From the NCBI GenBank assembly GCA_964548205.1, contig CAZJPJ010000002.1:5737-69736 (forward strand): a stretch of DNA of 64,000 nt, read 5' to 3'. Shown here piece by piece: positions 2,622-64,000 of the stretch. Every line of letters starts with the position of its first letter. The first letter of the stretch is position 1. The position numbers and the translations under genes were made by a program. This DNA is from an uncultured Candidatus Saccharibacteria bacterium. GTDB lineage: Bacteria > Patescibacteriota > Minisyncoccia > Phycocordibacterales > WO2-35-19. The notes beneath the pieces are model-generated. The model ran no database searches and was not told where the DNA came from. It was given only the letters and a program-made list of their open reading frames with translations.

Positions 2622-3395
2622 ATGATCAGATTAAAATCAGAAGAAGATATTGCGATCCTAAGGGAGGGGGGTAAAATACATGCCAAGATTCTTGCAGAAG
2701 TAGCGAAGAAAGTAAAACCGGGAGTAAAGACAGAAGAGCTCAACGACTATGCAGAAAAACTGATCGACGAAGCTGGGTGTACCGCATCTTTCTTGGGTTA
2801 TAAGCCTCAAGGTGTCAAAAGACCATATCCAGCTTCGCTTTGTGTGTCAGTAAACGAAGAGATAGTGCACGGTATACCAAACGGTGATAACAATAGAATA
2901 TTATTCGAAGGAGATATCGTAACACTTGATCTCGGTCTTACTTATAATAAGATGATCACTGATGCCGCTATCACCGTGCCGGTAGGTAAGATCAGTGAAG
3001 AAGCTTCTACTCTTATAAGAGGCACAAAAGAGGCGCTCGATAGAGCTATCAAAAACATGAGAGTCGGAGGACATATAGGCGATATAGGAGCAGAAGTGAT
3101 GGAAGTGGCAGTCAAGTATGACCTAGGTGTAGTCGAAGGTCTTGCTGGGCATGGTGTAGGATACAAAGTGCACGAGTCTCCCTTTGTACCAAATAGGGCA
3201 GAGAGGGGCGAGGGGCCAGAACTTGTACCCGGACTGGTCATAGCTATAGAGCCTATGTTGAGCTTAGGGAGCAGAGAGATAAAGCTTTTGAGTGACGGGT
3301 ATACTTATATCACTCGCGACAAGTCACTCTCTGCACACTTCGAGCATACAGTAGCGGTCACCAAAACTGGCATCGAGGTCCTCACTCGTATATAA
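2622..3395 (+). CDS. map: Methionine aminopeptidase type I
   Basis: MetAP fold motifs (IRLKSEEDIAILREGGKI..., metal-binding D/D/H/E/E pattern, HGIPNG). Follows adk as in the spc operon. Confidence 0.9.
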   Translation: MIRLKSEEDIAILREGGKIHAKILAEVAKKVKPGVKTEELNDYAEKLIDEAGCTASFLGYKPQGVKRPYPASLCVSVNEEIVHGIPNGDNNRILFEGDIVTLDLGLTYNKMITDAAITVPVGKISEEASTLIRGTKEALDRAIKNMRVGGHIGDIGAEVMEVAVKYDLGVVEGLAGHGVGYKVHESPFVPNRAERGEGPELVPGLVIAIEPMLSLGSREIKLLSDGYTYITRDKSLSAHFEHTVAVTKTGIEVLTRI

Positions 3396-4738: not shown

Positions 4739-6129
4739 AAACCCGACAGATCGGAAACGAGATTATTTTTTACGGTGGAGTCGGTTCTACCACAGGTGCC
4801 AATTTTATGTTTACCAATGGCAAAGTAAAAGTTCTCATAGATTGTGGTCTGCGACAAGGTTCTAAAAAGGAAGAAGAAGAAAATTTTTTAGACTTTTCTT
4901 ATGATCCAAGCGAAGTAGATTTTCTGCTTATAACCCACGCCCATATGGATCATATTGGGAGGGTGCCAAAACTGATCAGAGATGGTTTTAGGGGCAAGAT
5001 CGTGTCTACTGCTGCAACCAAGCAACTGTCAGAACTTGCTCTGCAGGATGCTCTCAGGGTTATTTCTTCAAAATATCCAGATAGAGTGTTGTTTGAAAGT
5101 GAAGATGTAGAAGTCGCATTGCGTATATGGGAAACAAAAGAGTATCACGAAGTTTTTGAGTTGGGCGAGGGTTTAAAATGTGAGTTTTACAACTCGGGAC
5201 ATATTCTAGGTTCTTCTATTGTGGTTATAGAAGATAAGAGTGGGCGAGTAGCTTTTACTGGAGACTTGGGTAATTCGCCATCCCTTCTTTTACAAGACGT
5301 AGAATTGCCACAAAATATTGATTATTTGGTTATAGAGAGTGTGTATGGAGACAGGAATCATGATAATAAAGCAGAGAGACATGGGAAGATGCAAAATCTT
5401 ATAAGAGAGGGTATTAGGCGTGGCGGGGCTATTCTTATACCAGTCTTTTCTATCGAGAGGGCTCAAGTTCTCCTATATGAAATAAATAACATGATAGAAG
5501 ATGGAGAAATCGATCAGGTGCCGGTTTATCTTGATTCACCTCTCGGAGCTAAAGTGACAGAGGTTTATAGAAATTATAAAGAGCTATTCAATAAAAATAT
5601 TAAAGCCGAAATATCAGGTGGAGACGATATATTTGATTTTCCGAATTTTAAGATCATAGATAGTTTGCAAGACTCAAGTTTGATTCACAAAGAAAAAGGC
5701 CCCAAAATAATTTTAGCCGGATCTGGGATGTCAGAAGGTGGGAGAATGATAAGTCATGAGCAGTTTTATCTGGAAGATCCAAATTCGACACTCATCTTTG
5801 TCGGTTATCAAGCAGTAGCTACTCTGGGTAGAAGATTGGAGCAGGGAGAGAAACGTATCGAAATATATAACAAAAACAAGGAAGGGAAAAAAGAAAAGAA
5901 GATAATAAATGTCAGAGCCCATATTGAAAAAATAAATGGTTACTCCTCACATATGGACATGGATCACCTAACCGAGTTTGTCGACAATCTCAATGCACAA
6001 CACAAGCTTAGAAAAGTTTTTGTGTGTATGGGAGAACCAAAATCCTCGCTGCATTTGGTACAACGTCTGCGAGATTATGTCGGTGTCGAAGCTGTGTACC
6101 CTGAGATAAATAGGGAATACATTGTTTGA
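4735..6129 (+). CDS. MBL-fold metallo-hydrolase, beta-CASP RNA-processing family (RNase J/CPSF-like)
   Basis: Metallo-beta-lactamase motif ITHAHMDHIG, N-terminal GG.G...LIDCG pattern, and a C-terminal beta-CASP-like region. Overlaps the upstream ORF by 4 nt. Adjacent to rny. Confidence 0.7.
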   Translation: MKTRQIGNEIIFYGGVGSTTGANFMFTNGKVKVLIDCGLRQGSKKEEEENFLDFSYDPSEVDFLLITHAHMDHIGRVPKLIRDGFRGKIVSTAATKQLSELALQDALRVISSKYPDRVLFESEDVEVALRIWETKEYHEVFELGEGLKCEFYNSGHILGSSIVVIEDKSGRVAFTGDLGNSPSLLLQDVELPQNIDYLVIESVYGDRNHDNKAERHGKMQNLIREGIRRGGAILIPVFSIERAQVLLYEINNMIEDGEIDQVPVYLDSPLGAKVTEVYRNYKELFNKNIKAEISGGDDIFDFPNFKIIDSLQDSSLIHKEKGPKIILAGSGMSEGGRMISHEQFYLEDPNSTLIFVGYQAVATLGRRLEQGEKRIEIYNKNKEGKKEKKIINVRAHIEKINGYSSHMDMDHLTEFVDNLNAQHKLRKVFVCMGEPKSSLHLVQRLRDYVGVEAVYPEINREYIV

Positions 6130-7659
6130 TTACCTAGCGAATTCGATGACGCGGGATTCCCGGATGATGAGTACTTTTATTTCACCAGGATATTTTAGTT
6201 CGTTCTCTATCCTTAAAGCTATGTCTCTGGCTAAGTTTTTAGCTTCGAGGTCTGTAACATCATTGGGGTTTACAAAGACTCTTACTTCTCGGCCAGCTTG
6301 TAAAGCGTACGCTTTGTCTATGCCTTTGAAAGAAGTAGCAATGCTCTCTAGTTCTTCCAGACGTTTCAGATAATTCTCTACAGTATCTCTTCTTGCTCCT
6401 GGTCTAGAGCCAGATATAGCGTCTGCAGCTTGGACTATATAAGATTCTAATGTTTCATAAGGGTATTCTCCGTGGTGAGCCTCCATAGCCTTTACTACAA
6501 GCGGATCGGCTCCAAATTTTTGTAATATTCTTCTACCAATCTCTACATGAGTGCCTTGGATTTCGTGGTCTACAGCTTTGCCTATGTCATGTACCAGAGC
6601 CCCAGTCTTTGCTATTGCCACATTTGCTCCGATCTCAGCTGCGATCATACCCGCTATATGAGACATCTCTATAGAGTGTTGGAGTACGTTCTGGCCATAT
6701 GATGTTCTAAAGTGCAGTCGACCGAGTATCCCAATGATACGTGGATCTAAGTTGAAAACTCCGCACTCATATGCTGCTTGTTCTCCTTTTTCTTTGATTA
6801 TCTTATTTATCTCTTGCTTTGCCTTTTCAAGCATCTCCTCGATCTTTGCTGGTTGGATGCGACCGTCTTCGATAAGTTTCTCAAGAGCCACTCTTGCCAC
6901 TTGTCTACGCACAGGATCATGAGACGAAAGGGTGATAACACCCGGAGTGTCGTCGACAATTACTTCTACACCACTAGCTCTTTCAAAGGCCTTGATGTTC
7001 CTTCCTTCTTTGCCGATAATTTTACCCTTGATTTCATCAGAAGGGATCGAGACTGCTGTAGCAAATATATCTGAAGAGACTGAGTTCGCTAGGCGATGAA
7101 TAGATGTGGTCAAAATACTTTTGGCTTTTGATTCTAGTTTCTCAGCACCTTGTTGCTCAAGTTTCTGCATCCTTACTAACAGATCTTCTTCATAGTTTTT
7201 CTCTGCTTCAGAGAGTATGATTTTTTTTGCTGATTCTGGATTTAATCCAGATATCTTTTCTAGGTTCTTTATACGCTGTTGTTCTAGGGCTTCTGCTCTA
7301 TCTTTGATCTGCTTTATTTCTGTTGCTTTTTCCTTTATCTGCTCAACTTCTTTGTCTATGTCTACTTGGCGTTTATCTAAGAACTCCTCTTTCTTTATAA
7401 GGCGCTCTTCTGTTTTTGTTATCTTTTCTTCTCTTTCTTTGAATTCACTACGAAGAGAAGTTTCCATCGCGGCTACCTTTTTTTCGGCCTCCTCTAATAT
7501 CTTGGTCGCTTCTTCTTTGGCATGAAGTTCCATTTGCTTTATTCGCAGCTCCACAGAACCTCTTTGGCCGAGAGAGATGATCCATCTGAGGAAATATCCA
7601 AAACCAATACCCAAAAGGGCTGCGAAGCCTGCGAGTATTATTGCTAATTTTAGTGACAT
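6130..7659 (-). CDS. rny: Ribonuclease Y
   Basis: N-terminal TM anchor, a long coiled-coil, a KH domain (GKIIGKEGRNIKAFE) and an HD domain (HSIEMSHIAGMIAAE...HDIGK). Confidence 0.9.
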   Translation of the reverse strand: MSLKLAIILAGFAALLGIGFGYFLRWIISLGQRGSVELRIKQMELHAKEEATKILEEAEKKVAAMETSLRSEFKEREEKITKTEERLIKKEEFLDKRQVDIDKEVEQIKEKATEIKQIKDRAEALEQQRIKNLEKISGLNPESAKKIILSEAEKNYEEDLLVRMQKLEQQGAEKLESKAKSILTTSIHRLANSVSSDIFATAVSIPSDEIKGKIIGKEGRNIKAFERASGVEVIVDDTPGVITLSSHDPVRRQVARVALEKLIEDGRIQPAKIEEMLEKAKQEINKIIKEKGEQAAYECGVFNLDPRIIGILGRLHFRTSYGQNVLQHSIEMSHIAGMIAAEIGANVAIAKTGALVHDIGKAVDHEIQGTHVEIGRRILQKFGADPLVVKAMEAHHGEYPYETLESYIVQAADAISGSRPGARRDTVENYLKRLEELESIATSFKGIDKAYALQAGREVRVFVNPNDVTDLEAKNLARDIALRIENELKYPGEIKVLIIRESRVIEFAR

Positions 7660-9201: not shown

Positions 9202-10231
9202 TAAGCATGCTCTCTACGTATATTCTCACGTTTTCTTCGTTTGCTTCTCTATAGTGTTCAAGAATATTTTTGACCTCATTTTCTAATATGGTCTGGTCTG
9301 GTTTGAGGTTTTCTGCTTTGGCTATAGCGTTGAATATGAGTTGGATTTTTGCCTTTTTCTCACCTTGTTCTCTTAGTTCTTCTCTTAATTTACTCTCGTC
9401 TTTATTTATGTGAGATAAATACTCTTCCCATTTACCTTTCATCCTTGCTATATCATCTTTCATCTGGGCCAATGACTTTTCGACTTCGCTTACGACCAAT
9501 ATTTCTGGCAACTCAATCTCGGTGTTTTTGATAAGCTCTTCCATCAACGTCGCTCTTTGCTTATCAGCTTCTTTGTTTTTCTTCTCGTTTTTTATATTTT
9601 CTCTTACTTTGGTGCGTAGTTCTTCTAGATTGGCAAAATTGCCAGCAGCTTTCGCTAGTTCGTCATCTAGGGTAGGGAGGTTCGCTTCCTCTTCAAAATT
9701 TGGATGACTCGGGTCATCGTGACCTTTGTCTTTATTCTGATTATGCCAATCGTGGTGAGCCTTATTTTTGCGTATCTCAAATAATACATCCTCTACTTCT
9801 TTCTCCGTAACTTCTGGTTCTTCCTTATTATTTTTGTTAGCCAAATCAGTGCCTATCTTTTTGTAGTCTGGGAGTTTAAACTCTGGCAATGTGGCCACCT
9901 TTATCTTAAATTCAAGTGGGTTACCAAATGCTATCTTTGTGATGGATACATCAGGTCTACCTATAGCATCGATGTTTGCTTCAATTAGTATTTTGCCATA
10001 ATGTTCGTTTATAGCTATTTCTGCAGCTTCACTGAGTATAGTCGATTCTCCGAGTTTGCTTACGACTATATTTTCTGGAATATTTCCTTTCCTAAAACCA
10101 TCTACTGATATTGTTTCTCCAAGCTTTTTTATAGCTTTCTTGCGGGCCCCATCGAGTTCGGAGCTTTCTATAGTGCACTCTATCTCTACTTCTGATTTTG
10201 GTAACTTTTTTATTTTGAAATCGTATTTCAT
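9164..10231 (-). CDS. tig: Trigger factor (short form, apparently lacking the PPIase domain)
   Basis: N-terminal ribosome-binding domain with the GFRKGNIP signature, followed by a K/E-rich helical C-terminal arm. 355 aa with no FKBP-like segment. Confidence 0.75.
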   Translation of the reverse strand: MKYDFKIKKLPKSEVEIECTIESSELDGARKKAIKKLGETISVDGFRKGNIPENIVVSKLGESTILSEAAEIAINEHYGKILIEANIDAIGRPDVSITKIAFGNPLEFKIKVATLPEFKLPDYKKIGTDLANKNNKEEPEVTEKEVEDVLFEIRKNKAHHDWHNQNKDKGHDDPSHPNFEEEANLPTLDDELAKAAGNFANLEELRTKVRENIKNEKKNKEADKQRATLMEELIKNTEIELPEILVVSEVEKSLAQMKDDIARMKGKWEEYLSHINKDESKLREELREQGEKKAKIQLIFNAIAKAENLKPDQTILENEVKNILEHYREANEENVRIYVESMLINQEVLRLLEQQ

Positions 10232-11463: not shown

Positions 11464-11531
11464 TTTTTCTTAAGGTTAATTCTAAGAGCCAGAAAAGTAA
11501 TCTGGTTTGTTAGATTATACACCTTATGAAG

Positions 11532-12056: not shown

Positions 12057-12183
12057 AAGTTAGTTAAAAGTTAAAAGTTTTTAAAGTTATACAAGTCTGG
12101 TTATTTTAATCCAAAGAATGGACTATTTCAATGTCGCTATTTTATCACATTTCCTAACGAGGTTTATGTTTTCACTCTTCTCC

Positions 12184-13524: not shown

Positions 13525-16500
13525 ATGAGTAATCCAGGGTTGGAAATTGATAAAGGAATCAAAAGGTCCCCGGTAGATAGTTTGAGGTCTTTTGTAACCG
13601 ATCATGGGTATAAGGTTGAGTTCAATAGTGAGTTTTCAAACCTTGGCGCTGAAGAAAAGAACAGAGTTGCCGATATTTGGTTAGATTATCTAAGCAGTTT
13701 ATCAGAAGATGGTTTAAAAAGTTTTTTCTCTGGCCGTCAAGATAACATGCAAGTTATATCCGCCGACACTACTTACATTACACATCAATTAAGTGATGGC
13801 GATACTGCTGAGACAGAACCAACAAGGAGAATCACTTTTGGTTTAAACCCAGATTTTAAAAGAATATCAGATTTGTTAAATAGTTTAGATATAGGATGGA
13901 ACACTTCGGATAGTTTTGCTTTAATGAATGATCGAGCAAGAAAGAGAATATTAAGGGAAGTTGCTGATCGCTTGACCGAAAATTCTGATTCAGATTTGGT
14001 TGTGGCTCTTGGTGAGTTAAAGAAAAGAGAAGTGAGTATAATGTTGGCTCCAAATTCTCCCGGTGGTCACAATGGGGTGTCTTTGTCTGAAGATGGAAAA
14101 ATTTTAAATATAGCCAACCATTTTTTTACCGGTGCGGATATTTTAAGAGCTCTTGGTTTGGGCAATTTGATTAGTGTCAAGCAAGAGAAAAAGCAGGAAC
14201 AAGATGCAGAAATAAAAGGTCTAAAACTAGACATTTATCAGAAATTAGCGGGTGTAAATGTAGAGTATGGTCTTGAAGGAGATGAATTGGCAGAAGGTCT
14301 TCATAATTTTCTTAAGGTACTCAAAACCTATAGTTTATCTGAGTTGCAGACGATAAAAGAAAGATTTTCCAATATCTTGATAACAAAAGGTGTAGATATG
14401 TATTCTGATCTTGATTTGTTATTAAGAAAAGAAAGACAGGGTAGTTTGAGAGTTGATGCAACCCTTCCTTTCGAGGCTTTGAAACGGAACATAGATATTT
14501 TGGTCAATCCACTTCTTTTGTCAGATGATGTGCCAAGTCCTGATATTCCTGTACCGGAAATAGATGCTGAGGATGCAAATCCAGATCCATTTAAGGAGGG
14601 CGTGTTCGATCAATCTGAAGAAGTCAAAACTGGTATCGAAAAATTTAAACAAGATCTTTTTGAAGCAAGTAAAGATCTGGCGCGAGCCGAGTTTGATTTT
14701 AATAAGAGTAAAAGTCCCGAGGATAGAGAAAAAATGGATGAAGCCCAGACAAGATTGTACCAAAAAAGAGCGGAACTTGACCAAGAGGTTTTGAAAAATG
14801 TTAGTTCTAGAGCCAAAGATGAAAACATCGACGGTGCTAATTTGCAGGATGTAGATATAAAAATCGGATCTATATATAGGCGTATACAGATGGAGATATT
14901 GGCAGAAGAAAGAAGAGTCTTTCTAGACGAATACAGAAGTTATAGTGAACAAAATAGAGAAAGGGGAGCCAAAGATTGGCTTATAGAAAAAGCCAAAAAA
15001 GCCTTAGGTATAAAGGGGGTACAGTGGTATCTGGGTCTAAACAAATACAAGAGGACTGCTATAAATGTTGCCATATTTAGTACTGCTGTGACTGTAGGTA
15101 CTTTTGCTACGGGAATTGGGGCTGTAGCGGCTGCGGGCACAGGAGTTTCTATGGGAGCAATCAGAGGGGTCAGAGCTTTAGGAGCTTTGGGGACGGGGTA
15201 CCTTACTAACTCTCAGGTAGAGAAGAGAGGTATTAAAACACTAAATATCCTGTCTAAAGATGCTATAGATACTCTAGAAAAAGAAGAAAGAGAAAAAATA
15301 GAAAATTCAGGTATGGATATAAATGCAAAAGCAAAAGCTTATGAAGAGTTAGAGAGACGTCTTACAAGTGAAAAGAAAAAACTGAATATATCAAAGATAG
15401 TCGCAACTCTTGCAGGTGGTGTAGGTGGAGGTGTGGGTACTGGTCTGTTGCTAGATGCGTTTTACGGAGGAACAGGAAGTTCTTCTTTGCTGAACAATCG
15501 TTCTGGTCGCGCTTCTTTTGATCCCTCTTCTCAAAATGGAAGAAATTCTTTAACAGGATTATCGCCAAAGTCTCAAGACCAGATCCCTGTTGCGGGCAAA
15601 GGTGTTACAGAAGAGGTTGTCAAACCTATAGAACTTGTACCTCCTGCACAAGAGATGATGCCGCAGGTTGCTATACAGGAAATGTTTGGAAATACTGAAG
15701 CGGTGAAGCATATAGTGGAAGCTGGAGATTCTCAATGGAAACTTCTCGAAAAGACTCTTGAAAACTATGACAAATACAAACAGCTCTCTTCTGGAGAGGG
15801 GCAAAGTGCAAATGCTGTACTGGAGGCAAAGAGAACCTATGTAATCTCAATGCTAAATCAGGAGATTCAAAAAGACCCTTCTCAATATGGAGTAGATGCT
15901 GATGGGCTAAAGGTTGGCGATAAAGTTGATTATACAAAGTTGTTTGAAAACAAAGCTTTAGTGGATAGGGCTATAAATGAAGCAGAAAATCTAAAACCAA
16001 ATCAGATAGAGAATATTATTAAGAATAATGCTCAAGTAAAAAATTGGGTAGAAAAGCATTCCGGAGAAGCTCTTGATGAGAGTAAGGTAAGCGAAATTAT
16101 TTCTAACGACACTTCTAAGACTTCTGGGGGTATAAAATCACTATATACAGAATCCAGTGGTTCTACGGGCGCTGAAGGTGTTGATAATGAAGATGTGAAT
16201 GCTCGTGAGAGCACCACAGTTGCCCCAGATAAGGGGGGAGTAGAAGAAGTTGCAACTCCACAAGCAGCGGGTGCCAATGCGACGAAAGAAGCTGCTAAAG
16301 AAGTAGAGTTGCTCAAGAACAGTGAATACTTTGATGTATACAAGAAAGATATTGGTGAATCGTTGGTCCAATTCTTAGAATTAAAGGAACAAATCTTAAA
16401 ATTGGATTTACCGCAAAATGTTTCTAAGAATCTTGTAGCAAAAATTGATTACCTAACAAACAGTATAGAGGTTTTAAAAGAAAACCTGAATACATTGACG

Positions 16501-17223
16501 ACAGAATCGTATAATCAGCAAATTGAAAACATAGCAAATGAGTATGAACAACTTATCAATGAAGCTCGCAAGGCTATATCTGACGAAACTAAGTCAAGAG
16601 GTCTAATGGAAGATTTATCTAATGAAAAAAGATTACTTGCCAATCTAATAGACAATAAAAAGCCTAGTGTTGGTAACAGCGGTTTAGATGAGCAGAGAAA
16701 TATGATTCACAATGAAATAGCTGCTGCAAAGGAGAGATTGGTCGCTTTGCAATCACAGACTAAAGACAATGTAGTAGAGATGCCGACGAGGAATGCAAAT
16801 CTTGAGAGGACTATGTATGGAGATATTAGTGATATAGAAAGAATAGGAAAAACATTTGAACAAGAATTTAGAAATATATATGACCAAAATGGTTGGTTGA
16901 GACGTACGTCTGGAATTGATACTAAGGAGGGCCGATGGATGCTCTCTCAGAATTTTGACAAGATTTTGAAATTTGCCACAACTGGTGATGCACAAAAATC
17001 TGGATTGGCAGCTGAAGCTATAAACACCATATCTGGATCTCCCAAACATCAAGCTTTTCTTAATGAGATAAGAGATTTGCATAGTATGGCAAAAGAAAAT
17101 GGTATTGCAATAACAGTAGCCCCCAACACTGGTGTTCGAGAAGGTATGATGAAGTTGGTCGAATCTATTATGAGATTCCAAAATAACGCATCAGCTACAA
17201 ATGTGTTGCCTAAAGTGGCATAA
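13525..17223 (+). CDS. Giant hypothetical membrane protein of 1232 aa with no recognisable domains
   Basis: Uninterrupted 3.7-kb ORF. Central Gly/Ala-rich hydrophobic segments (AINVAIFSTAVTVGTFATGIGAVAAAGTGVSMGAI; IVATLAGGVGGGVGTGLLL). Long predicted coiled-coil regions on both sides and a Ser/Gly-rich linker. Confidence 0.6.
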   Translation: MSNPGLEIDKGIKRSPVDSLRSFVTDHGYKVEFNSEFSNLGAEEKNRVADIWLDYLSSLSEDGLKSFFSGRQDNMQVISADTTYITHQLSDGDTAETEPTRRITFGLNPDFKRISDLLNSLDIGWNTSDSFALMNDRARKRILREVADRLTENSDSDLVVALGELKKREVSIMLAPNSPGGHNGVSLSEDGKILNIANHFFTGADILRALGLGNLISVKQEKKQEQDAEIKGLKLDIYQKLAGVNVEYGLEGDELAEGLHNFLKVLKTYSLSELQTIKERFSNILITKGVDMYSDLDLLLRKERQGSLRVDATLPFEALKRNIDILVNPLLLSDDVPSPDIPVPEIDAEDANPDPFKEGVFDQSEEVKTGIEKFKQDLFEASKDLARAEFDFNKSKSPEDREKMDEAQTRLYQKRAELDQEVLKNVSSRAKDENIDGANLQDVDIKIGSIYRRIQMEILAEERRVFLDEYRSYSEQNRERGAKDWLIEKAKKALGIKGVQWYLGLNKYKRTAINVAIFSTAVTVGTFATGIGAVAAAGTGVSMGAIRGVRALGALGTGYLTNSQVEKRGIKTLNILSKDAIDTLEKEEREKIENSGMDINAKAKAYEELERRLTSEKKKLNISKIVATLAGGVGGGVGTGLLLDAFYGGTGSSSLLNNRSGRASFDPSSQNGRNSLTGLSPKSQDQIPVAGKGVTEEVVKPIELVPPAQEMMPQVAIQEMFGNTEAVKHIVEAGDSQWKLLEKTLENYDKYKQLSSGEGQSANAVLEAKRTYVISMLNQEIQKDPSQYGVDADGLKVGDKVDYTKLFENKALVDRAINEAENLKPNQIENIIKNNAQVKNWVEKHSGEALDESKVSEIISNDTSKTSGGIKSLYTESSGSTGAEGVDNEDVNARESTTVAPDKGGVEEVATPQAAGANATKEAAKEVELLKNSEYFDVYKKDIGESLVQFLELKEQILKLDLPQNVSKNLVAKIDYLTNSIEVLKENLNTLTTESYNQQIENIANEYEQLINEARKAISDETKSRGLMEDLSNEKRLLANLIDNKKPSVGNSGLDEQRNMIHNEIAAAKERLVALQSQTKDNVVEMPTRNANLERTMYGDISDIERIGKTFEQEFRNIYDQNGWLRRTSGIDTKEGRWMLSQNFDKILKFATTGDAQKSGLAAEAINTISGSPKHQAFLNEIRDLHSMAKENGIAITVAPNTGVREGMMKLVESIMRFQNNASATNVLPKVA

Positions 17224-17243
17224 TAAATAAAACCAAAGATAAA

Positions 17244-17543
17244 ATGGATGAGAATTTAAAGAAAAAATTGATAGAGGATTTCAACCTAAGCAAGATGAGC
17301 AAAGGCGAGCAAGAAGAGATGATAGATAAGATAGGCACTATGCTCTTTGAAGCAGTGCTCGAGCGTTCGCTCGATGATATGGACGAAGATACTCTCTATA
17401 AGTTTGAAAATGAGCTCTCTGACCCTAAGGGTGATTATGACATCGTTATCGCATTTCTAAAGAAGAATGTTAAAGACTTCAATGACATCGTCTCAACTGA
17501 GATGGCTCGCCTCAAACGCGCCACTGCCGGCATTTTTGCATAA
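17244..17543 (+). CDS. Hypothetical small acidic helical protein
   Basis: 99-aa ORF starting 20 nt after the giant ORF. No family recognised. Confidence 0.45.
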   Translation: MDENLKKKLIEDFNLSKMSKGEQEEMIDKIGTMLFEAVLERSLDDMDEDTLYKFENELSDPKGDYDIVIAFLKKNVKDFNDIVSTEMARLKRATAGIFA

Positions 17544-25814: not shown

Positions 25815-26180
25815 ATGAAAAAGATATTGATTGTAGATGATGACGAATTTTTCCCAAAGACTTTGGCTTCTGCTTTGCCTGTTGGTAAATACAAGATTGT
25901 CATGGCTAGTGACGGGGCTGAGGGTATGGAAAAATTAAAAACAGAGAATCCAGATCTGGTTATCTTGGATCTGCTGATGCCGAAGATGGATGGTACAGAG
26001 TTTTTGCGAGCGGTAAATGCAGACAAGGATATAAAAAAAATTCCTATACTAGTTTCTTCAAATTTGACCAGTATGAAGAAGGTGGGTGACTGTTTGTCTA
26101 TGGGTGCGGCTGGTTATATATTAAAGTCCGATGAGAGCCTCGATACTATAGTTCAAGATATAGAAAGAATCTTGGGATAA
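25815..26180 (+). CDS. Response regulator, receiver domain only (CheY-like)
   Basis: KILIVDDDE...LVILDLLMPKMDG...K... REC signature. No output domain. Confidence 0.85.
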   Translation: MKKILIVDDDEFFPKTLASALPVGKYKIVMASDGAEGMEKLKTENPDLVILDLLMPKMDGTEFLRAVNADKDIKKIPILVSSNLTSMKKVGDCLSMGAAGYILKSDESLDTIVQDIERILG

Positions 26181-28704: not shown

Positions 28705-28758
28705 TTTTTAAAACTCTTGCTTTCAAATTTATAGACTTTAAACTTTTAACTAAATCTC

Positions 28759-39405: not shown

Positions 39406-39441
39406 CTTTATAGACTTTTAACTTTAAAACTTTTAACTAAA

Positions 39442-40738: not shown

Positions 40739-41008
40739 ATGAACACGAAATCTGAGACAAAAGAAAAAGACAACAAGGTAGGAGCAAAAGTGCTCAATGG
40801 AGTTGTGGTATCAAGTAAAATGAAGGACACTGCAGTTGTAGAAGTGGTGAGGTATGTGAAGCACCCAAAGTATAAGAAATACTACAAGGTGAACAAGAGG
40901 TACAAGGCACATGATGTCGGCAACAAGGCAGAGGTTGGGCAGAAGGTAGGAATAAGGTCTGTAAGGCCAATATCAAAAGACAAACATTTTGTTATAGTTC
41001 ATAGTTAA
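40739..41008 (+). CDS. rpsQ: 30S ribosomal protein S17
   Basis: GVVVSSKMKDTAVVEV.RYVKHPKYKKYYKVNKRYKAHD...G..V.I...RPISK.K.FVIV. Confidence 0.9.
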   Translation: MNTKSETKEKDNKVGAKVLNGVVVSSKMKDTAVVEVVRYVKHPKYKKYYKVNKRYKAHDVGNKAEVGQKVGIRSVRPISKDKHFVIVHS

Positions 41009-41033
41009 AAGTCGAAGGTTAAAAGTAAAAGAG

Positions 41034-59229: not shown

Positions 59230-59511
59230 GCGGGTGTAGCTCAGCTGGTTAGAGCGTCCGCCTGTAGATATGCAGCTTTTTGCCGAAAAGGCAAATTGAA
59301 ACTCTTTGGGATATCGGTGAAGGCTAAGTCTTATTTATATATATAGGATATGCGAACACCGAGGGAACTCGCCGATAAGGCGAGAGCGCCGTAGAGACTA
59401 GATACCAAAGCACCTAAAAGGAAACTCATGGTGAAGATATAGTCCACTCCGCTATGAAAATAGCGGGTAAGTGCACGCGGAAGGCCGTGGGTTCAAATCC
59501 CATCACTCGCG
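59230..59511 (+). tRNA. tRNA-Asp(GUC) gene interrupted by a group I intron in the anticodon loop (exon 1 59230-59265, exon 2 59474-59511)
   Basis: Exons join to gcgggtg-ta-gctc-agctggtta-gagc-g-tccgc-CTGTCAC-gcgga-aggcc-gtggg-ttcaaat-cccat-cactcgc-G. G10, G73 and the CUGUCAC loop are as in canonical tRNA-Asp. The 5' splice site follows U35 and pairs ctgt with the gcag guide (U:G). The intron ends in G. Confidence 0.8.
59266..59473 (+). ncRNA. Group I (self-splicing) intron, ~208 nt, Azoarcus/tRNA-intron type core
   Basis: The P7-P9 region cgccGTAGAGACTAGAtaccaaagCACCTAAaaGGaAACtCATGG closely matches the Azoarcus tRNA-Ile intron core (GUAGAGACUAGACGGCACCCACCUAAGGCAAACGCUAUGG). gggat...ctaagtc resembles its P3-P4 segment. 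No ORF inside. Confidence 0.75.
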
Positions 59512-59591
59512 CATCGATTTTTATACTGTGGTTAAGCCACAAAAACCACACACCCCTAAGGGATTAGAACTGTGGTAGTATTTTGGGTATG
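59497..59591 (+). repeat. Cassette-junction repeat family A, founder copy (tRNA-Asp 3' end plus downstream ~80 nt)
   Basis: aaatcccatcactcgcgcatcgatttttatactgtggttaagccacaaaaaccacacacccctaagggattagaactgtggtagtattttgggtATGg. Near-identical copies occur at 62471-62577 and 63646-63754. Confidence 0.8.
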
Positions 59592-60071
59592 GAAAATGAA
59601 ATTGAAAGAAAGTTCTATGTTAAAGAAATGCCTGATTTGTCTCTAACCAAGCCATTGCATTATGAAAGATTTTTCTTAGAAAGAAGTGAGGGAAGAGAGA
59701 TTAGGATTTCGAAAGTAGATAACAGGTATTGGTATGAAGTAAAGAATGAGTTATCCGAATTGGAAAGAACACGAGAAAAGAAAGAAATAACAAAAGAAGA
59801 GTTTGATAGCTTAAAACGGGGTTCCTCAGAAGTTATTATGAGGGAAAGATACGATCTTTCGTCTAATCCTAAAATTTCAATACAGATATATCACGGAAGA
59901 TTTGAAGGTCTAGTAAGAGCTGAGGTTGAGTTTGAAACAGAGGAAGAAGCTAAAAACTTCAAACCCTTGGAATGGATGGGAGAAGAAATGACGGGGTTGC
60001 CGATTGCTAGGGATAGTAAACTTATTGATCTATCGGATGCAGAATTTAAGACATATTTAAAATTGATTTAG
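59589..60071 (+). CDS. CYTH-domain protein (triphosphate tunnel metalloenzyme)
   Basis: N-terminal EIERKFYV (the ExExK motif of CYTH). Acidic residues recur in the alternating-strand pattern. ATG start preferred over the TTG at 59583. Confidence 0.6.
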   Translation: MENEIERKFYVKEMPDLSLTKPLHYERFFLERSEGREIRISKVDNRYWYEVKNELSELERTREKKEITKEEFDSLKRGSSEVIMRERYDLSSNPKISIQIYHGRFEGLVRAEVEFETEEEAKNFKPLEWMGEEMTGLPIARDSKLIDLSDAEFKTYLKLI

Positions 60072-60123
60072 TAAAATCAGTATTCATTTAATTGTTAGCG
60101 GGAGTTCCCAATTTACTACTGTT

Positions 60124-60309
60124 ATGATAAAAATAGAGGGGAAGGATCATATGAGCGAAGAAAATGACTTATACAGAGCTCTTGTTGATGCCCAGGCGAG
60201 AAGAGCCTCAATGGCAACAGAAAGCAGTCTCTGCCCCACGTGTGGGGCTACTATGATAAAAAGCGGTGGGCATTACCACTGCGAAACTCATGGCTCTCCA
60301 AAAAAATGA
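60124..60309 (+). CDS. Hypothetical small zinc-ribbon protein
   Basis: CPTCG...HYHCETHG four-ligand motif. 61 aa. Confidence 0.4.
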   Translation: MIKIEGKDHMSEENDLYRALVDAQARRASMATESSLCPTCGATMIKSGGHYHCETHGSPKK

Positions 60310-60349
60310 GGACTGATTAAAACAGCCAGACACTCAGAAAGGAGGTATT

Positions 60350-60399
60350 GTGTCTGGCTTTCGCTTTTATAAATATAGAGTGATAGTATTTCGGGTATG
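60350..60399 (+). repeat. Promoter/start-module repeat family B, copy 1
   Basis: gtgtctggctttcgcttttataaatatagagtgatagtatttcgggtATG. A 48/50 match occurs at 62107-62156. It carries the TGaTAGTAT extended -10 and a near-leaderless start context. It is preceded by the hairpin agccagacac...gtgtctggct. Confidence 0.7.
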
Positions 60400-60924
60400 A
60401 AAATCTACTTAATAAGACATGGTGAGACAACTGGTGATATAGAAGATAGATATGGTGGTAGTTATGACGACCATCTTACAGAGTTAGGAAGACAACAGAT
60501 TCAAGAAACAGCCGATAAAATTGTAGGAAAAGGGATAGAAATCATTTTTACCAGTACCCTTATAAGAGCAAAGGAATCTGGACAAATAATTTCTTCAAAG
60601 ATTGGTTGTGCGGTAGAAGAAAGAGAAGGTCTACAAGAAAGACACTATGGCATTCTAACTGGTCTTACAAAAGCTGAAGCCCTAGAAAAATACCCAGAAG
60701 TTGTGGAAGCGCATAAGGACTCAAAAAATACTGACCCAGAAGGGGAGAGTTATGAAGACTTTCAAAACAGAGTTCTGAATTCATTCAAAGAAATACAAAA
60801 AGAAAACTATAATACTGTTGCCATAGTCTCTCATGGTGGCCCAATTAAGCAAATCCTGGCTTACTTGAATATGGATATTCCTGAAAAACTGGGAGACGGA
60901 GAGATAATTGAGTTTGAACATTAG
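60397..60924 (+). CDS. Histidine phosphatase family protein (phosphoglycerate mutase-like)
   Basis: MKIYLIRHGET (RHG catalytic motif), ...VSHGGPI second His. Confidence 0.65.
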   Translation: MKIYLIRHGETTGDIEDRYGGSYDDHLTELGRQQIQETADKIVGKGIEIIFTSTLIRAKESGQIISSKIGCAVEEREGLQERHYGILTGLTKAEALEKYPEVVEAHKDSKNTDPEGESYEDFQNRVLNSFKEIQKENYNTVAIVSHGGPIKQILAYLNMDIPEKLGDGEIIEFEH

Positions 60925-60951
60925 TTCTAACGTCGTACACTACCCCGCGCA
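60923..60951 (+). repeat. Partial copy of junction repeat A (5' part only)
   Basis: agttctaacgtcgtacactaccccgcgca versus agttctaacatcgtacactagctcgcgca in the full copies. Confidence 0.6.
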
Positions 60952-61216
60952 AGACCAAAAATTGCTGGATTTTTTCCAGCAATTTTTGCGTCTATGCACG
61001 ATGTAGAAGCAAGCCAACTGCTTGGCTTGCGTTGGGATTTGAAAAGCGCAGCCATGTTTTTGTAGCAACAAAAACAGGCGAGCTAGGGTCATGAAAAATT
61101 TTCTGCAGAAAATTTATTCCTGACCAAATCCCATCACTCGCGCTAAGGGACTTTTTCTTAAAATATGTTGATAAATAAAGCCCGTTGGGTTCTAACGGGA
61201 GCTATTGTTTTTTTAT
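60952..61216. other. Highly structured noncoding region carrying an exact 19-nt copy of the tRNA-Asp 3' end (att-like) and ending in an intrinsic terminator
   Basis: Perfect hairpins at 60955-60989 (14-bp stem), 61009-61030 and 61056-61077. The self-complementary gaaaattttc occurs twice around tgcag. caaatcccatcactcgcgc at 61125-61143 equals the tRNA-Asp 3' end. Terminator cccgtt-gggttct-aacggg plus T7 lies at 61179-61216. Confidence 0.55.
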
Positions 61217-61304
61217 CATATCTATTATATAATTAGACCACTACTTAAACACGAGTAGTCGGTAACAACGAACATGTTCCCGCAATCCAAACAGAGGTGA
61301 AAAT

Positions 61305-61655
61305 ATGCCCGAGATTATTCTTTCTAGGCTGCAGTATGTGGCGGCGGGTATCGTCTTTCAGTCGTCGTTGTTTTCGTTTGACGATCTGGCTCATTTGAAT
61401 CATGTCGAGGTCAAGATTGCACCGACGACGGTTGGAAAGAGGGCCTTGATTGCTTATGTAAAGTTGTACTTCGATCGTTGGACATATGTTCAACACGGAC
61501 CCAGCGATCATCCTGCCCACAAAATGCCTGCAGAAGTCAGTGTTGTTTTCCTTCAGAACAGACAAAGGAAGCTGACGGGATACTACACTGTCGCCTTTTT
61601 CTACAACGGTGATCCTGGAGAACCGAAATTTCTCCATTCCATTGTTGGTTGGTAA
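61305..61655 (+). CDS. Hypothetical protein encoded in a GC-rich cassette
   Basis: Good Shine-Dalgarno (GAGGTG) 7 nt upstream of the ATG. The ORF region is much more GC-rich than the genome. A fully overlapping antisense ORF (61245-61658) exists, so the strand call is tentative. Confidence 0.4.
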   Translation: MPEIILSRLQYVAAGIVFQSSLFSFDDLAHLNHVEVKIAPTTVGKRALIAYVKLYFDRWTYVQHGPSDHPAHKMPAEVSVVFLQNRQRKLTGYYTVAFFYNGDPGEPKFLHSIVGW

Positions 61656-61817
61656 CAAACGCTCTGGAGAACAGCGTCCAACTTCAGCCTCGCGCTAACA
61701 CCGTGGGGCTTTCCATTTTTAATGCAAATGCAGTTCTAACATCATCCCTGCCCGCAATGCTTCGCATAGCGATGCAGGCGGGCACTAGGTGTTCCGAATT
61801 ATGCTAATATTTCACGC

Positions 61818-62096
61818 ATGATACGTTGGTTGGTTGATCGTAAATACTTTAGAAACGAAAATCATGCCATATGGTTTGCATGTTCGCTGGCCATAATATT
61901 TTTCGTGACACTCACGTATCTGAGGCCAAGCAAATTCATTTTTCTTTTGACACCGCTCGTTGTACATATACCCGCTCTCATAAACTCTTCTATCTCCGTT
62001 TACTTTGCTAAGGAGAGCGACTTGTATTCTAAAGACTGCATTTGGTTCAATGCTCTTTTGATAATTGTTTACCTAATATTATTTTCACTTTTTTAG
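61818..62096 (+). CDS. Hypothetical membrane protein (3 TM)
   Basis: 92-aa hydrophobic ORF. An upstream sequence (61721-61790) starts with cagttctaacatc, like the junction repeat, followed by nested GC hairpins. Confidence 0.4.
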   Translation: MIRWLVDRKYFRNENHAIWFACSLAIIFFVTLTYLRPSKFIFLLTPLVVHIPALINSSISVYFAKESDLYSKDCIWFNALLIIVYLILFSLF

Positions 62097-62106
62097 ACTC
62101 TATAGA

Positions 62107-62156
62107 GTGTCTGGCTTTCGCTTTTATAAAGATAGAGTGATAGTATTTTGGGTATG
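62107..62156 (+). repeat. Promoter/start-module repeat family B, copy 2
   Basis: gtgtctggctttcgcttttataaagatagagtgatagtattttgggtATG. Confidence 0.7.
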
Positions 62157-62480
62157 GAAAAAGTAAAAATTGTTGTGTTTGTTCCAGAAACTCATGCTGA
62201 TGCGGTTAGAAAAGCTGTTGGAGAAGCAGGTGCTGGAAAAATTGGAAACTATATCCATTGTAGCTTTTCAGTAAAGGGCAAAGGAAGATTCATTCCTCAA
62301 GATGGAGCTGACCCAACAATAGGGGAAATAGGTAGATACGAAGAGGTAGACGAAGAAAGAATCGAGTTTGTTTGTGACAAGGGTATGTTAGATCAAGTGA
62401 TTAAAGCTATGAAAGAAGTACACCCATATGAAGAGGTTGCATATGATGTTTACCCACTTTTAATAAAATCCCAGTTCTAA
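62154..62480 (+). CDS. Hypothetical small alpha/beta protein, tentatively PII/CutA-like fold
   Basis: KIVVFVPETHADAVRKAVGEAGAGKIGNY...HPYEEVAYDVYPL resembles GlnB-like superfamily members (HPYE motif as in CutA). The ATG start is used rather than the TTG at 62148. The stop codon lies inside the junction repeat. Confidence 0.4.
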   Translation: MEKVKIVVFVPETHADAVRKAVGEAGAGKIGNYIHCSFSVKGKGRFIPQDGADPTIGEIGRYEEVDEERIEFVCDKGMLDQVIKAMKEVHPYEEVAYDVYPLLIKSQF

Positions 62481-62577
62481 CATCGTACACTAGCTCGCGC
62501 ATCGGTTTTTCTATTGTGGTTAAGCCACAAAAACCACACACCCCTAAGGGATTTGAACTGTGGTATATTGGGATAGG
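62471..62577 (+). repeat. Cassette-junction repeat family A, copy 2
   Basis: ccagttctaacatcgtacactagctcgcgcatcggtttttctattgtggttaagccacaaaaaccacacacccctaagggatttgaactgtggtatattgggatagg. Confidence 0.8.
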
Positions 62578-62590
62578 AAAGAGGTGAATA

Positions 62591-63094
62591 TTGGAACGTG
62601 TAATAGAAATAGTTGGAAATATAGATGACCAAATGGCTGACATGTTTGAGGGAAAGATCCGAGAACTATCTGCTAAAGGAAATGATCCTATTTTGCTCGT
62701 GATTAGCTCACACGGTGGGTATGAAGCTCCCATGATAAGAATTATCGAGCAGATCAAAGCTTGCTCGGCCATTGTCAATGGGCGGGTTCGTGATTATGCA
62801 CATTCAGCAGGATTCGTTATTCTGCAATACTGCAAAGAGAGGAGAGCGCCTAGAGACAGCAGTCTGCTTCTTCATCTACCAAGATATGAAGCGGCAGATA
62901 TTACCAGAATGGTTGGCTTTCCAGCTGAGGAGGCCTGCGTAATCGAAGGTAATGAATTCTTCTATCGTTTTCTGGATTATCTAGGAGGAAGATCAAACCT
63001 TAACAGGTTTAAGCTTCGAGAGCTCGCAAGGGAAGATAGGGTGATTTTGGGGGCTGAAGCACTTGCCCTCGGTTTTCTTGACTGTTTGGAATAA
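62591..63094 (+). CDS. ClpP-family serine peptidase-like protein (phage prohead-protease type)
   Basis: ILLVISSHGGYEAPMIRII, nucleophile context YAHSAGFVIL, His in LLLHLP. TTG start with an AAGAGG Shine-Dalgarno. Confidence 0.5.
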   Translation: MERVIEIVGNIDDQMADMFEGKIRELSAKGNDPILLVISSHGGYEAPMIRIIEQIKACSAIVNGRVRDYAHSAGFVILQYCKERRAPRDSSLLLHLPRYEAADITRMVGFPAEEACVIEGNEFFYRFLDYLGGRSNLNRFKLRELAREDRVILGAEALALGFLDCLE

Positions 63095-63157
63095 CACGCC
63101 GCCCGATGCGAGGCACGACCTCGGTCGGGCTCTCGCTTTTTATGCTATATTCTTGGT

Positions 63158-63655
63158 ATGGAATCTCAGCCCAAACAATTTAACTATGAGAATAGTCTAA
63201 TAAGAGAAGTTTATGAATTATTAGGAGCCAGCACTCCGCTTGAGCTCCATGATAAATATGTCATAGAAGAACAGAAATTATTTAAGTCTCATGAATGGGA
63301 TTATGATAACCATGAGCAAATACAGAATAAGGTAAAAGATATTTTAGATAACGTAGATCCCACCACTCTTACTGAAGAGGAGCAAGAATGGAGACAGGAG
63401 ATACTGTGGTTCTGGTACCACCATGCTATTAGCTGTGCCATCTGGAAGAAAGATAGAGAAAAAGCTATTGAGTACTCAGAAAAAGCACTTTCTCTACAAG
63501 ATCGAGATCACCCTAATAAAATAACTAAGGTTCTTAGTTTGCTTGTCAACGACAAACTAGAAGAAGCAGAGGAATTTGTAAAAACTATTAATACCGATAA
63601 AGACACGGCCGAAGGGTTAATCGAGGATTATAAGAATGGAGGATTCCAGTTCTAA
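63158..63655 (+). CDS. Hypothetical protein
   Basis: 165-aa acidic ORF. Its last codons (…QF*) are provided by the junction repeat, as for the 62154 ORF. Confidence 0.4.
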   Translation: MESQPKQFNYENSLIREVYELLGASTPLELHDKYVIEEQKLFKSHEWDYDNHEQIQNKVKDILDNVDPTTLTEEEQEWRQEILWFWYHHAISCAIWKKDREKAIEYSEKALSLQDRDHPNKITKVLSLLVNDKLEEAEEFVKTINTDKDTAEGLIEDYKNGGFQF

Positions 63656-63754
63656 CATCGTACACTAGCTCGCGCATCGGTTTTTATATTGTGGTTAAGC
63701 CACAAAAACCACACACCCCTAAGGGATTTGAACTGTGGTAGTATTTTGGGTATG
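63646..63754 (+). repeat. Cassette-junction repeat family A, copy 3
   Basis: ccagttctaacatcgtacactagctcgcgcatcggtttttatattgtggttaagccacaaaaaccacacacccctaagggatttgaactgtggtagtattttgggtATG. Confidence 0.8.
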
Positions 63755-64000
63755 GAAATATTGGAATTATCTGAAATAGGTGAGAAGGTAATAAAAAACA
63801 AGACAAATATTTTAATTGGTTTAAGTATAAACAATAGCTATTTCAAAGATGGAAACCTGGAGAAAATAATCCAATGGTCAGCAGAAAATGCAAAAAGAAT
63901 ATTCATAATGATACCTGATAAACCTGCCATTTTTACCTTAATGAGCTTTGGTTATTCTGAAGATAAGGCTAAGGCAAAGGCTCGCCTCGAATCTAATAGA
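63752..64000 (+). CDS. Cyclodipeptide synthase (tRNA-dependent, CDPS)-like protein, N-terminal 83 aa (3' end outside the window)
   Basis: NILIGLSINNSYFKDGNLEKIIQWSAENAKRIFIMIPDKPAIFTLMSFGYSEDKAKAKAR parallels the CDPS N-terminal core (for example the B. subtilis YvmC-like [24 protein letters not shown]...LLAGHEAANLLEALG...KAERKVR), including the catalytic Ser context. Confidence 0.5.
   Translation, partial: MEILELSEIGEKVIKNKTNILIGLSINNSYFKDGNLEKIIQWSAENAKRIFIMIPDKPAIFTLMSFGYSEDKAKAKARLESNR

Follow-up and report, generated by a model that had tools for sequence, protein, structure and literature searches.

What are the repeats that recur between small, unrelated genes downstream of a tRNA-Asp gene, and what placed them there? 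This question is raised by the last 4.5 kb of a 64,000-nt stretch of DNA (the whole of which is termed the window below) from an uncultured Candidatus Saccharibacteria bacterium. The closest matches of its GatA protein, at 69-71% identity, are found in metagenome-assembled genomes (MAGs) of Candidatus Zambryskibacteria, and the window belongs to a genome of the Candidate Phyla Radiation (CPR, or Patescibacteria). The junctions between these genes are probably attachment sites of a widespread, apparently undescribed family of small integrative modules residing at tRNA 3' ends in CPR bacteria, with a large serine recombinase (LSR) acting in trans as the most likely enzyme. Because the genomes of the ultra-small CPR bacteria are tiny and few mobile elements have been recognised in them, the gain and shuffling of their accessory genes are poorly understood. 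If real, such a family would offer a concrete mechanism, together with an easy and exact 18-nt marker of the CPR flexible gene pool in metagenomes.

Self-comparison of the window reveals three copies of a ~100-nt repeat (59480-59577, 62468-62565, and 63643-63740), all within its final 4.5 kb. A 39-nt core is exact in the three copies and has no further match in the 64 kb (none arose in any of 100 shuffled sequences). Rather than being scattered as generic intergenic modules, the copies of this core cluster at 59.5-63.7 kb. An earlier note, made from the sequence alone, had described three near-identical copies of ~105 nt. This holds for copies 2 and 3, which are 98% identical and show a degraded likeness up to ~62599 and ~63769, into the first codons, but copy 1 is the actual tRNA, 73% identical overall and alike to the others only from CTCGCGCA onward. 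Of the further copies that it listed, the partial ones are confirmed at 60923 and 61731, and the 19-nt one, which reproduces the tRNA 3' end exactly, at 61125. As it also observed, the repeat supplies the final codons and stop of two open reading frames (ORFs; 62154-62480 and 63158-63655), which terminate with CAG TTC TAA; a third ORF (60397-60924) terminates one codon sooner, with TAG TTC TAA. The repeat closes, on its 3' side, with an extended -10 box (TGnTAGTAT) 7 nt upstream of an ATG, which forms a promoter of the leaderless type. This layout is generic in the genome; the repeat's own promoter sequence is found only here, four times in the window. At its core, a junction consists of an 18-mer (TTCTAAC-N-TCGTACACTA) to which the terminal ~8 nt of tRNA-Asp are joined, and it continues with either the tRNA 3' flank or an older chromosomal flank. 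The 18-mer has three copies in the 64 kb, all within 3 kb. The tRNA, the main junctions and the units that they bound are as follows.

59230-59511, plus strand: tRNA-Asp(GUC), read from the sequence, with exon 1 at 59230-59265, a group I intron at 59266-59473, and exon 2 at 59474-59511.
59491-59537, plus strand: junction J1, attL-type, with a B half-site at 59491-59510 (G53 to C72, GTTCAAATCCCATCACTCGC), the centre GC at 59511-59512, and the P' side at 59513-59537.
59513-60948, plus strand: cassette A, a 1.44-kb insertion with three genes and no recombinase (Pfam and PHROGs).
59589-60071, 60151-60309, and 60397-60924, plus strand: the genes of cassette A, namely a 160-aa phrog_6660 member, a zinc-ribbon-like protein, and a His_Phos_1 protein (Pfam and PHROGs).
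60924-60970, plus strand: junction J2, attR-type, with a P half-site at 60924-60948 (GTTCTAACGTCGTACACTACCCCGC), the centre GC at 60949-60950, and the B' side at 60951-60970.
62474-62525, plus strand: junction J5, attP-like, with a P half-site at 62474-62498, the centre GC at 62499-62500, and the P' side at 62501-62525.
62501-63673, plus strand: a 1.17-kb unit between two attP-like junctions, with a ClpP-like gene at 62591-63094 and a 165-aa gene at 63158-63655.
63649-63700, plus strand: junction J6, attP-like, with a P half-site at 63649-63673, the centre GC at 63674-63675, and the P' side at 63676-63700.

The shared promoter module extends from J1 to the ATG at 59589 and from J6 to that at 63752, and the right sides of J1 and J6 are 96.7% identical over 90 nt. 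In J5, the degraded module extends to ~62599, and the last two codons and stop of gene 62154-62480 lie inside the junction.

Cassette A is the clearest insertion. The gene order GatA, p246, two tRNA-Met, p118, and tRNA-Asp is conserved in three related contigs (L004, L005, and L025), and everything downstream of tRNA-Asp differs between these and the window. In L005 and L025, tRNA-Asp is directly followed by a hairpin-rich element closing with a copy of the tRNA 3' end, and cassette A occupies the exact interval between the tRNA end and this hairpin element, the start of which forms the B' side of J2. The left boundary reads ..CACTCGC|GC|ATCGATTTTT and the right boundary GTTCTAACGTCGTACACTACCCCGC|GC|AAGACC.., and the insert therefore sits between two short CGCGCA repeats. 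Site-specific recombination anchored at the tRNA-Asp 3' end, as the earlier note had proposed, would account for this arrangement; the empty-site relatives are distant ones (~70% GatA identity). In all, the window holds tRNA-arm/P', P/B' (old flank), and P/P' combinations, and the tRNA/old-flank state is seen in the relatives: this is the pattern of attL, attR, attP, and attB. None of the cassette genes is found near tRNA-Asp in the relatives, the closest homologues of the 165-aa gene have different neighbours and no junction, and analogous repeat arrays are absent from the six related loci examined.

The site itself is shared by other genomes. A 20-mer of the P half-site (AGTTCTAACNTCGTACACTA) matches nine metagenome contigs, and alignment of 20 junctions from these contigs and the window shows the 18-mer to be exact in every one, between flanks that are unrelated from one lineage to another. 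Arrays of 18-mers in the same orientation between unrelated genes comprise four copies each in L089 and L091, and two to three in L088, L090, and L094. Their cargo is miscellaneous (AHSA1, cupredoxin, FAD-Rieske oxidoreductase, LRR, HIT, HAD, and many proteins of unknown function), and L088, L089, and L091 have only the junctions in common. The same family borders cassettes beside tRNA-His, tRNA-Gly and, in a weaker case, tRNA-Arg. The sequence following the 18-mer is constant within each genome and particular to it. In L091, it corresponds to the end of tRNA-His and its 3' flank (..CCAC|CC|CAGCGATTTTTAGCCTCA in the tRNA, ..CGAC|CC|CAGCACTTTTTAGCCTCA in the junction), and in L094 it resembles the end of tRNA-Arg. 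L093 displays a clean single insertion, in which tRNA-Gly is followed by a two-gene cassette (a HIT protein and a 140-aa protein), the 18-mer, and the last 10 nt of the tRNA, the 18-mer being continued by CCCGC|TC|AGA. The derivation of the junction from the tRNA, suggested in the earlier note, has to be divided accordingly: only the final ~8 nt of tRNA sequence and the 3' flank come from the local tRNA, and the left ~20 nt are an element-borne 18-mer that stays invariant across genomes with different anchor tRNAs. The 18-mer is absent from the viral contigs searched, matches no Rfam family, and its motif strings were not found printed in the literature searched. Its reading as a protein-coding segment (VY[D/E]VRT, minus strand) was rejected because the other wobble positions never vary.

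Could these repeats have spread without a dedicated recombinase, as a promoter-bearing intergenic module near tRNA-Asp copied by homologous or illegitimate recombination and gene conversion, so that several genes received one and the same promoter? The shared sequence does continue through the promoter to the start codon, the window contains no recombinase, and a second promoter module (60350 and 62107) has been duplicated at an arbitrary breakpoint. Searches of public genome and metagenome contigs with the 22-nt core of the P' module returned nothing, and neither did searches of phage and plasmid collections with J6 and its promoter module. However, local copying cannot explain an invariant 18-mer in unrelated genomes with different flanks, nor tails that track different local tRNAs, nor an exact insertion boundary with the last bases of the tRNA on one side and the 18-mer plus CGCGCA on the other. 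We consider it very unlikely.

The geometry of the sites bears on the class of the enzyme. In the four lineages compared (the window, L091, L093, and L094), 25 nt separate the G/A of GTTCTAAC, or (G/A)TTCTAAC, from the centre of the junction, and 20 nt separate the G53 of the T-loop GTTC from the centre in the tRNA. The centre is placed at the tRNA discriminator and the next base, where the crossover would presumably occur. In each of the four, the central dinucleotide of the anchor tRNA is that of its junctions (GC, CC, TC, and AC). In serine integrases, the attP half-site measures 25 bp, and the motif bound by the zinc ribbon lies 5 bp nearer the crossover dinucleotide in attB (PMC3783163). 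As far as sequences can tell, the 25/20-nt spacing and the dinucleotide agreement are this published attP/attB half-site geometry of the LSRs; the shared outer motif GTTC.AA would be, on the tRNA side, the universal T-loop.

A model of integration by a serine enzyme can be drawn from these sites. The attP-type site would begin with a 25-bp P half-site, in which the invariant 18-mer is joined to ~6 bp matching the acceptor strand of the target tRNA; a central dinucleotide corresponding to the discriminator and the next base, and a P' side carrying the module's promoter, would follow in turn. The attB-type site would be the tRNA itself from G53 in the T-loop to N72 (20 bp), followed by the same dinucleotide and the 3' flank. 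GTTC.AA would be the motif recognised by the recombinase, both in the T-loop and, 5 bp further out, in GTTCTAAC. J1 and J2 would be the hybrid attL and attR of one recombinase-less module, cassette A, with its empty site seen in L005 and L025; L093 provides the second clean case. J5 and J6 would be attP-like junctions, such as one would expect where modules have recombined with a site already taken, and would bound the 1.17-kb unit and the start of a cyclodipeptide-synthase unit. Modules devoid of a recombinase would be satellites of recombinase-bearing elements, and may still be mobile. If the cassettes are instead dead remnants, the finding shrinks to an ordinary tRNA-linked islet.

The same site family might be served by a tyrosine recombinase, either by classical accretion at a tRNA or through an integron-like platform in which the tRNA end acts as attI. 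This is unlikely in our view, even though tyrosine integrases classically target tRNA 3' ends and the unit is enclosed by a 9-nt inverted repeat (CAGTTCTAA..TTAGAACTG). The XerD probe detected no tyrosine recombinase in the window, no second inverted arm lies at a 6-8-bp spacing, the unit has no hairpin fold, and the cassettes have their own promoters. Furthermore, the 25/20-nt offset and the dinucleotide agreement are specifically explained only for serine integrases, and the recombinases that lie against tRNA ends beside related arms are serine enzymes (see below). For accretion by an integrase, one of the two routes envisaged in the earlier note, the site geometry points to a serine rather than a tyrosine recombinase. 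The 18-mer also resembles, by eye, a loxP arm (TAACnTCGTACA vs TAACTTCGTATA), with no second arm. Likenesses to dif/Xer sites and replication terminators were set aside; dif, like loxP, was compared by eye, and no second arm was found.

Serially integrated islands with partial tRNAs between the elements are also documented (10.1101/2020.12.28.424599), and these Prochlorococcus tycheposons resemble the present locus in having a tRNA seed, newer elements that displace older ones outward, and degenerate remnants. They differ in using tyrosine recombinases and in their ~40-nt partial tRNAs, whereas here ~8 nt of tRNA are duplicated beside a conserved non-tRNA 18-mer. The junctions share only CTCGCGCA with the tRNA, their T-loop-like part is the foreign 18-mer at a 5-nt offset, and no partial tRNA of ~20-45 nt is found in them. 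The 19-nt copy at 61125, unlike the junctions, does fit the partial-tRNA direct-repeat pattern of tyrosine-integrase islands.

The integron-like alternative of the earlier note, a tRNA-derived site in place of attC, finds a real echo in the layout: arrays lie on one strand, cassettes are small and unrelated, the site at the 3' end sometimes gives the stop codon, and sites are homogeneous within a genome. In contrast with integrons, there is no IntI and no attC hairpin, the cassettes have promoters, the core measures 18 nt instead of 7, and the anchor is a tRNA rather than an attI next to intI. Each cassette has its own -10 box, and the genes upstream of tRNA-Asp are syntenic with those of the relatives. 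Single-stranded-DNA folding of the three repeat copies, on both strands, is no better than that of shuffles (z +0.1 to -0.9); of the stem-loop-rich core described earlier, local stem-loops stand, but the unit as a whole has no significant hairpin. On the strength of the folding, an attC-like site is rejected.

An explanation at the RNA level deserves mention, in which the 18-mer and its tail mimic a tRNA 3' end for the processing of mRNA 3' ends, or serve as a terminator or insulator. The 18-mer is always oriented as the flanking genes are, is placed at the 3' ends of genes, between terminators and promoters, and reads as T-loop, T-stem strand, acceptor strand, and discriminator, with CCA added in three lineages. 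Nevertheless, the partner strands of the T and acceptor stems are missing, 5 nt are inserted relative to a tRNA, and the identity with the local tRNA extends into its untranscribed 3' flank. With sites that are clustered (3 in 64 kb, all within 3 kb) and without an Rfam match, such a signal is a very improbable explanation indeed.

A candidate for the serine recombinase is encoded in L094. This 524-aa protein (Resolvase, Recombinase, and Zn_ribbon_recom domains) is encoded by a gene whose 3' end abuts tRNA-Arg, with arms of the variant form (GGTTCTAGC..TCGTA..) beside it, 24 nt from AC|CAAG; two canonical junctions are found 4 kb further on the same contig. Its family counts at least 7970 members at E <= 1e-30, and the top 120 are 66-75% identical to it and named Saccharibacteria where named. 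The recombinase gene abuts tRNA-Leu or tRNA-Arg in L097, L098, and L100-L102, and has no adjacent tRNA in L099. A variant arm with a tail matching the adjacent tRNA lies ~300 nt 5' of the gene in L098, L100, L101, and L102, and none was seen in L097. In L098, L100, and L102, an attR-type arm in the orientation of the tRNA is found 3.7-5 kb from it, which delimits small elements composed of the recombinase and cargo. Relatives of the window organism (L084 and L087) carry a recombinase at 38% identity. Comparison of the intergenic DNA of the window with the arms of the LSR elements revealed no sequence similarity.

Several observations were made around these recombinase genes. That of L094 is bracketed by perfect 137-nt inverted repeats (3149-3285 and 4849-4985, in motif orientation), and that of L097 by ~60-nt ones (about 9730-9790 and 11464-11520); the next gene in L094 is flanked by a second inverted pair of 199 nt (4979-5177 and 6713-6911). 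The bracketing repeats begin at the last bases of the tRNA, so that attL-type and inverted attP-type sites face each other. This points to a recombinase module that can invert, or to two orientations merged in the assembly. The ~400 nt upstream of the recombinase gene (L097-L102, about 9600-10000) are strongly conserved between distant contigs and hairpin-rich (e.g., GGGGCAGCCGTTGGCTGCGCC and GGCTTTAATAGCCGTC), and may be a structured leader or a regulatory RNA. L084 and L087 form a present/absent pair at tRNA-Gln: a serine recombinase and ~8 kb of adjacent genes occur in L084 at the place where, in L087 (7863-7950), an intact tRNA-Gln leads directly into the downstream genes that both contigs share. 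In L084 (7926-7960 and 8440-8460), a GGTTCTAAC arm precedes GCCAGCAGC, and a second GCCAGCAG junction follows a small Exo_endo_phos gene. The arm spacing is ambiguous there because of a CAG repeat, and this pair is not used as evidence.

A number of points weigh against attachment sites served by a serine recombinase in trans. No recombinase was found in the window or its cassettes, either by phmmer with XerD and gamma-delta resolvase or by tblastn with the L094 recombinase, in agreement with the absence of an integrase reported earlier. A recombinase beside canonical 18-mer sites is known only from L094, where the enzyme's own arms are of the variant form. Identity between junctions runs ~55 nt past the 25-bp half-site, through the promoter, and the duplication of the second promoter module (60350/62107) has a breakpoint at no site. 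Symmetry between P' and P is limited in the window to an outer TAAC...GTTA in J5, centred at 62500, and none is clear in the L088 and L089 junctions. The 165-aa cargo gene is an ordinary member of a conserved CPR family, the native end of which is ..GKFF*, and ..GGFQF* in the window. For serine integrases, recombination of attP with attL or attR is not normal; internal attP-like junctions are not expected of a strictly unidirectional enzyme, and the model does not explain them. Finally, the comparison set contains no close relative or strain variant showing the presence or absence of a single cassette; look-ups of the exact proteins returned only short Logan contigs (SRR15237813), broken at the repeats.

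How would such modules relate to described systems? There are precedents for elements that integrate at tRNA ends, for their accretion, and for arrays in which some members lack a recombinase. The composite SCCmec islands, handled by the Ccr serine recombinases, insert at the 3' end of a conserved gene, rlmH, and form arrays with direct site repeats and recombinase-less members. They are thereby similar to the present arrays, also in that the repeat overlaps gene ends, but the present arrays, in a CPR host, are anchored at a tRNA and built of far smaller cassettes, and no ccr-like gene is seen in the window. The sites of phage LSRs (Listeria phage A118/LI integrase and phiC31) are likewise short and devoid of arm-type repeats, with 25- versus 20-bp half-sites, a 5-bp motif shift, a central dinucleotide that must match, and hybrid attL/attR sites flanking the insert (PMC3783163). 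The present sites differ from these. Their target is the T-loop/acceptor end of many different tRNAs instead of a single gene, P combines 18 invariant outer bp with ~7 inner bp that vary along with the target, and symmetry between P' and P is not clear. The modules are not phages but measure 1-5 kb, and many have no recombinase.

The invariant 18-bp half-site with a target-matched inner part, the apparent use of the universal T-loop as an attB motif by a serine enzyme, and tiny promoter-bearing modules in CPR bacteria appear to be new. A bolder and doubtful proposal, tentative at best, is that they constitute a CPR serine-recombinase analogue of the integron: one conserved family would read the universal T-loop, any tRNA 3' end could thereby dock cassettes, and a pool of 1-5-kb promoter-equipped, recombinase-less cassettes would be mobilised in trans, each with the invariant 18-bp half-site and an inner ~7 bp matched to the target. 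If true, the recombinase family would be unusual in reading a universal tRNA feature and retargeting by a few bases around the crossover, and this modular site design is of interest for serine-integrase engineering.

The remainder of the array is less regular than the clean tandem series of the earlier note, as 60951-62473 comprises an older structured element and a mosaic including a degenerate site. The features outside the main junctions are as follows.

60951-61143, plus strand: the older, structured "tRNA-tail element", with hairpin T1, hairpin H1 (61009-61030), an inverted T-arm copy (61032-61043), and two more hairpins.
61732-61760, plus strand: J4, a degenerate site, CAGTTCTAACATC followed by the tRNA-acceptor-like ATCCCTGCCCGCA.
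62107-62480, plus strand: the second promoter module (62107-62153) and a 108-aa gene (62154-62480).
63752-64000, plus strand: the first gene of the next unit, a cyclodipeptide synthase cut by the window end (Pfam PF16715, CDPS, E 2.4e-13).

The geometry of J4 fits neither 25 nor 20 nt, and the 18 nt on its 5' side resemble the 3' end of gene 62154-62480. The second promoter module, a 54-nt sequence, is the only other long direct repeat inside the 4.5 kb; at 62107 it is a 94% copy of 60350-60403, with its breakpoint inside a hairpin. The cyclodipeptide synthase, a tRNA-dependent enzyme, starts at J6, and no homologue was found with its 82-aa fragment.

The tRNA-tail element is conserved directly behind tRNA-Asp or tRNA-Met in several CPR lineages. 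Its folding z-scores lie between -3 and -6 for both strands, the window copy reaching about -6 whichever strand is folded. Its order is a hairpin, an inverted T-arm copy, two hairpins, and a direct copy of the tRNA 3' end starting in the T-loop; in the window, this last is the exact 19-nt copy, at 61125-61143. The inverted copy, sometimes with the acceptor strand, is split by a CTGC-loop hairpin with compensatory changes in its stem, and both copies co-vary with the adjacent tRNA; L068 shows the direct copy only. Homologous elements lie 3' of tRNAs in L005, L006, L008, and L025, and a direct tRNA-end copy 3' of tRNA-Asp in L009 and L068. Neither this element nor the junction matches an Rfam family. 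The element may be a remnant of another integrative element, or an RNA. The copies elsewhere are located as follows.

L025, 15829-16079, 17417-17600, and 17601-17830: tRNA-tail elements.
L005, 19048-19240: tRNA-tail element.
L008, 3567-3712: tRNA-tail element.
L006, reverse strand, at the contig end: tRNA-tail element.

The tRNA-Asp gene of the window, which does not encode CCA, is missed by ARAGORN because it is split by its group I intron. This intron is 208 nt long, interrupts the gene after U35 (position 35/36), and matches Rfam RF00028 (47.8 bits, E 4.7e-10). Introns of this class in tRNA-Asp, there at position 35/36, and in tRNA-Asn have been published and experimentally validated in Patescibacteria (PMC13011429). 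The tRNA-Asp gene of L025 also bears an intron (17166-17380) and is 82% identical to that of the window. A second group I intron lies in L025 at 14683-14942 (minus strand), upstream of its tRNA-Met, and an ORF at ~16478-17140, just 5' of its tRNA-Asp, has a YFDGDG motif, seen by eye, that is suggestive of a LAGLIDADG endonuclease.

Many genes of the window (e.g., at 25815, 26182, 44031, 47384, 53782, and 55843) have a TAnAAT-like box 6-8 nt upstream of the ATG and no Shine-Dalgarno sequence, which suggests that transcripts in this genome are commonly leaderless. A motif ACTTT(T/C)AACTAA, often tandemly doubled, is found just 5' of several start codons (5 matches vs ~1 expected in the window) and may be a shared regulatory site. 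Its copies in the window scan are the following.

264-275, 28742-28753, and 39429-39440: ACTTT(T/C)AACTAA.
12060-12071 and 41001-41012, minus strand: ACTTT(T/C)AACTAA.

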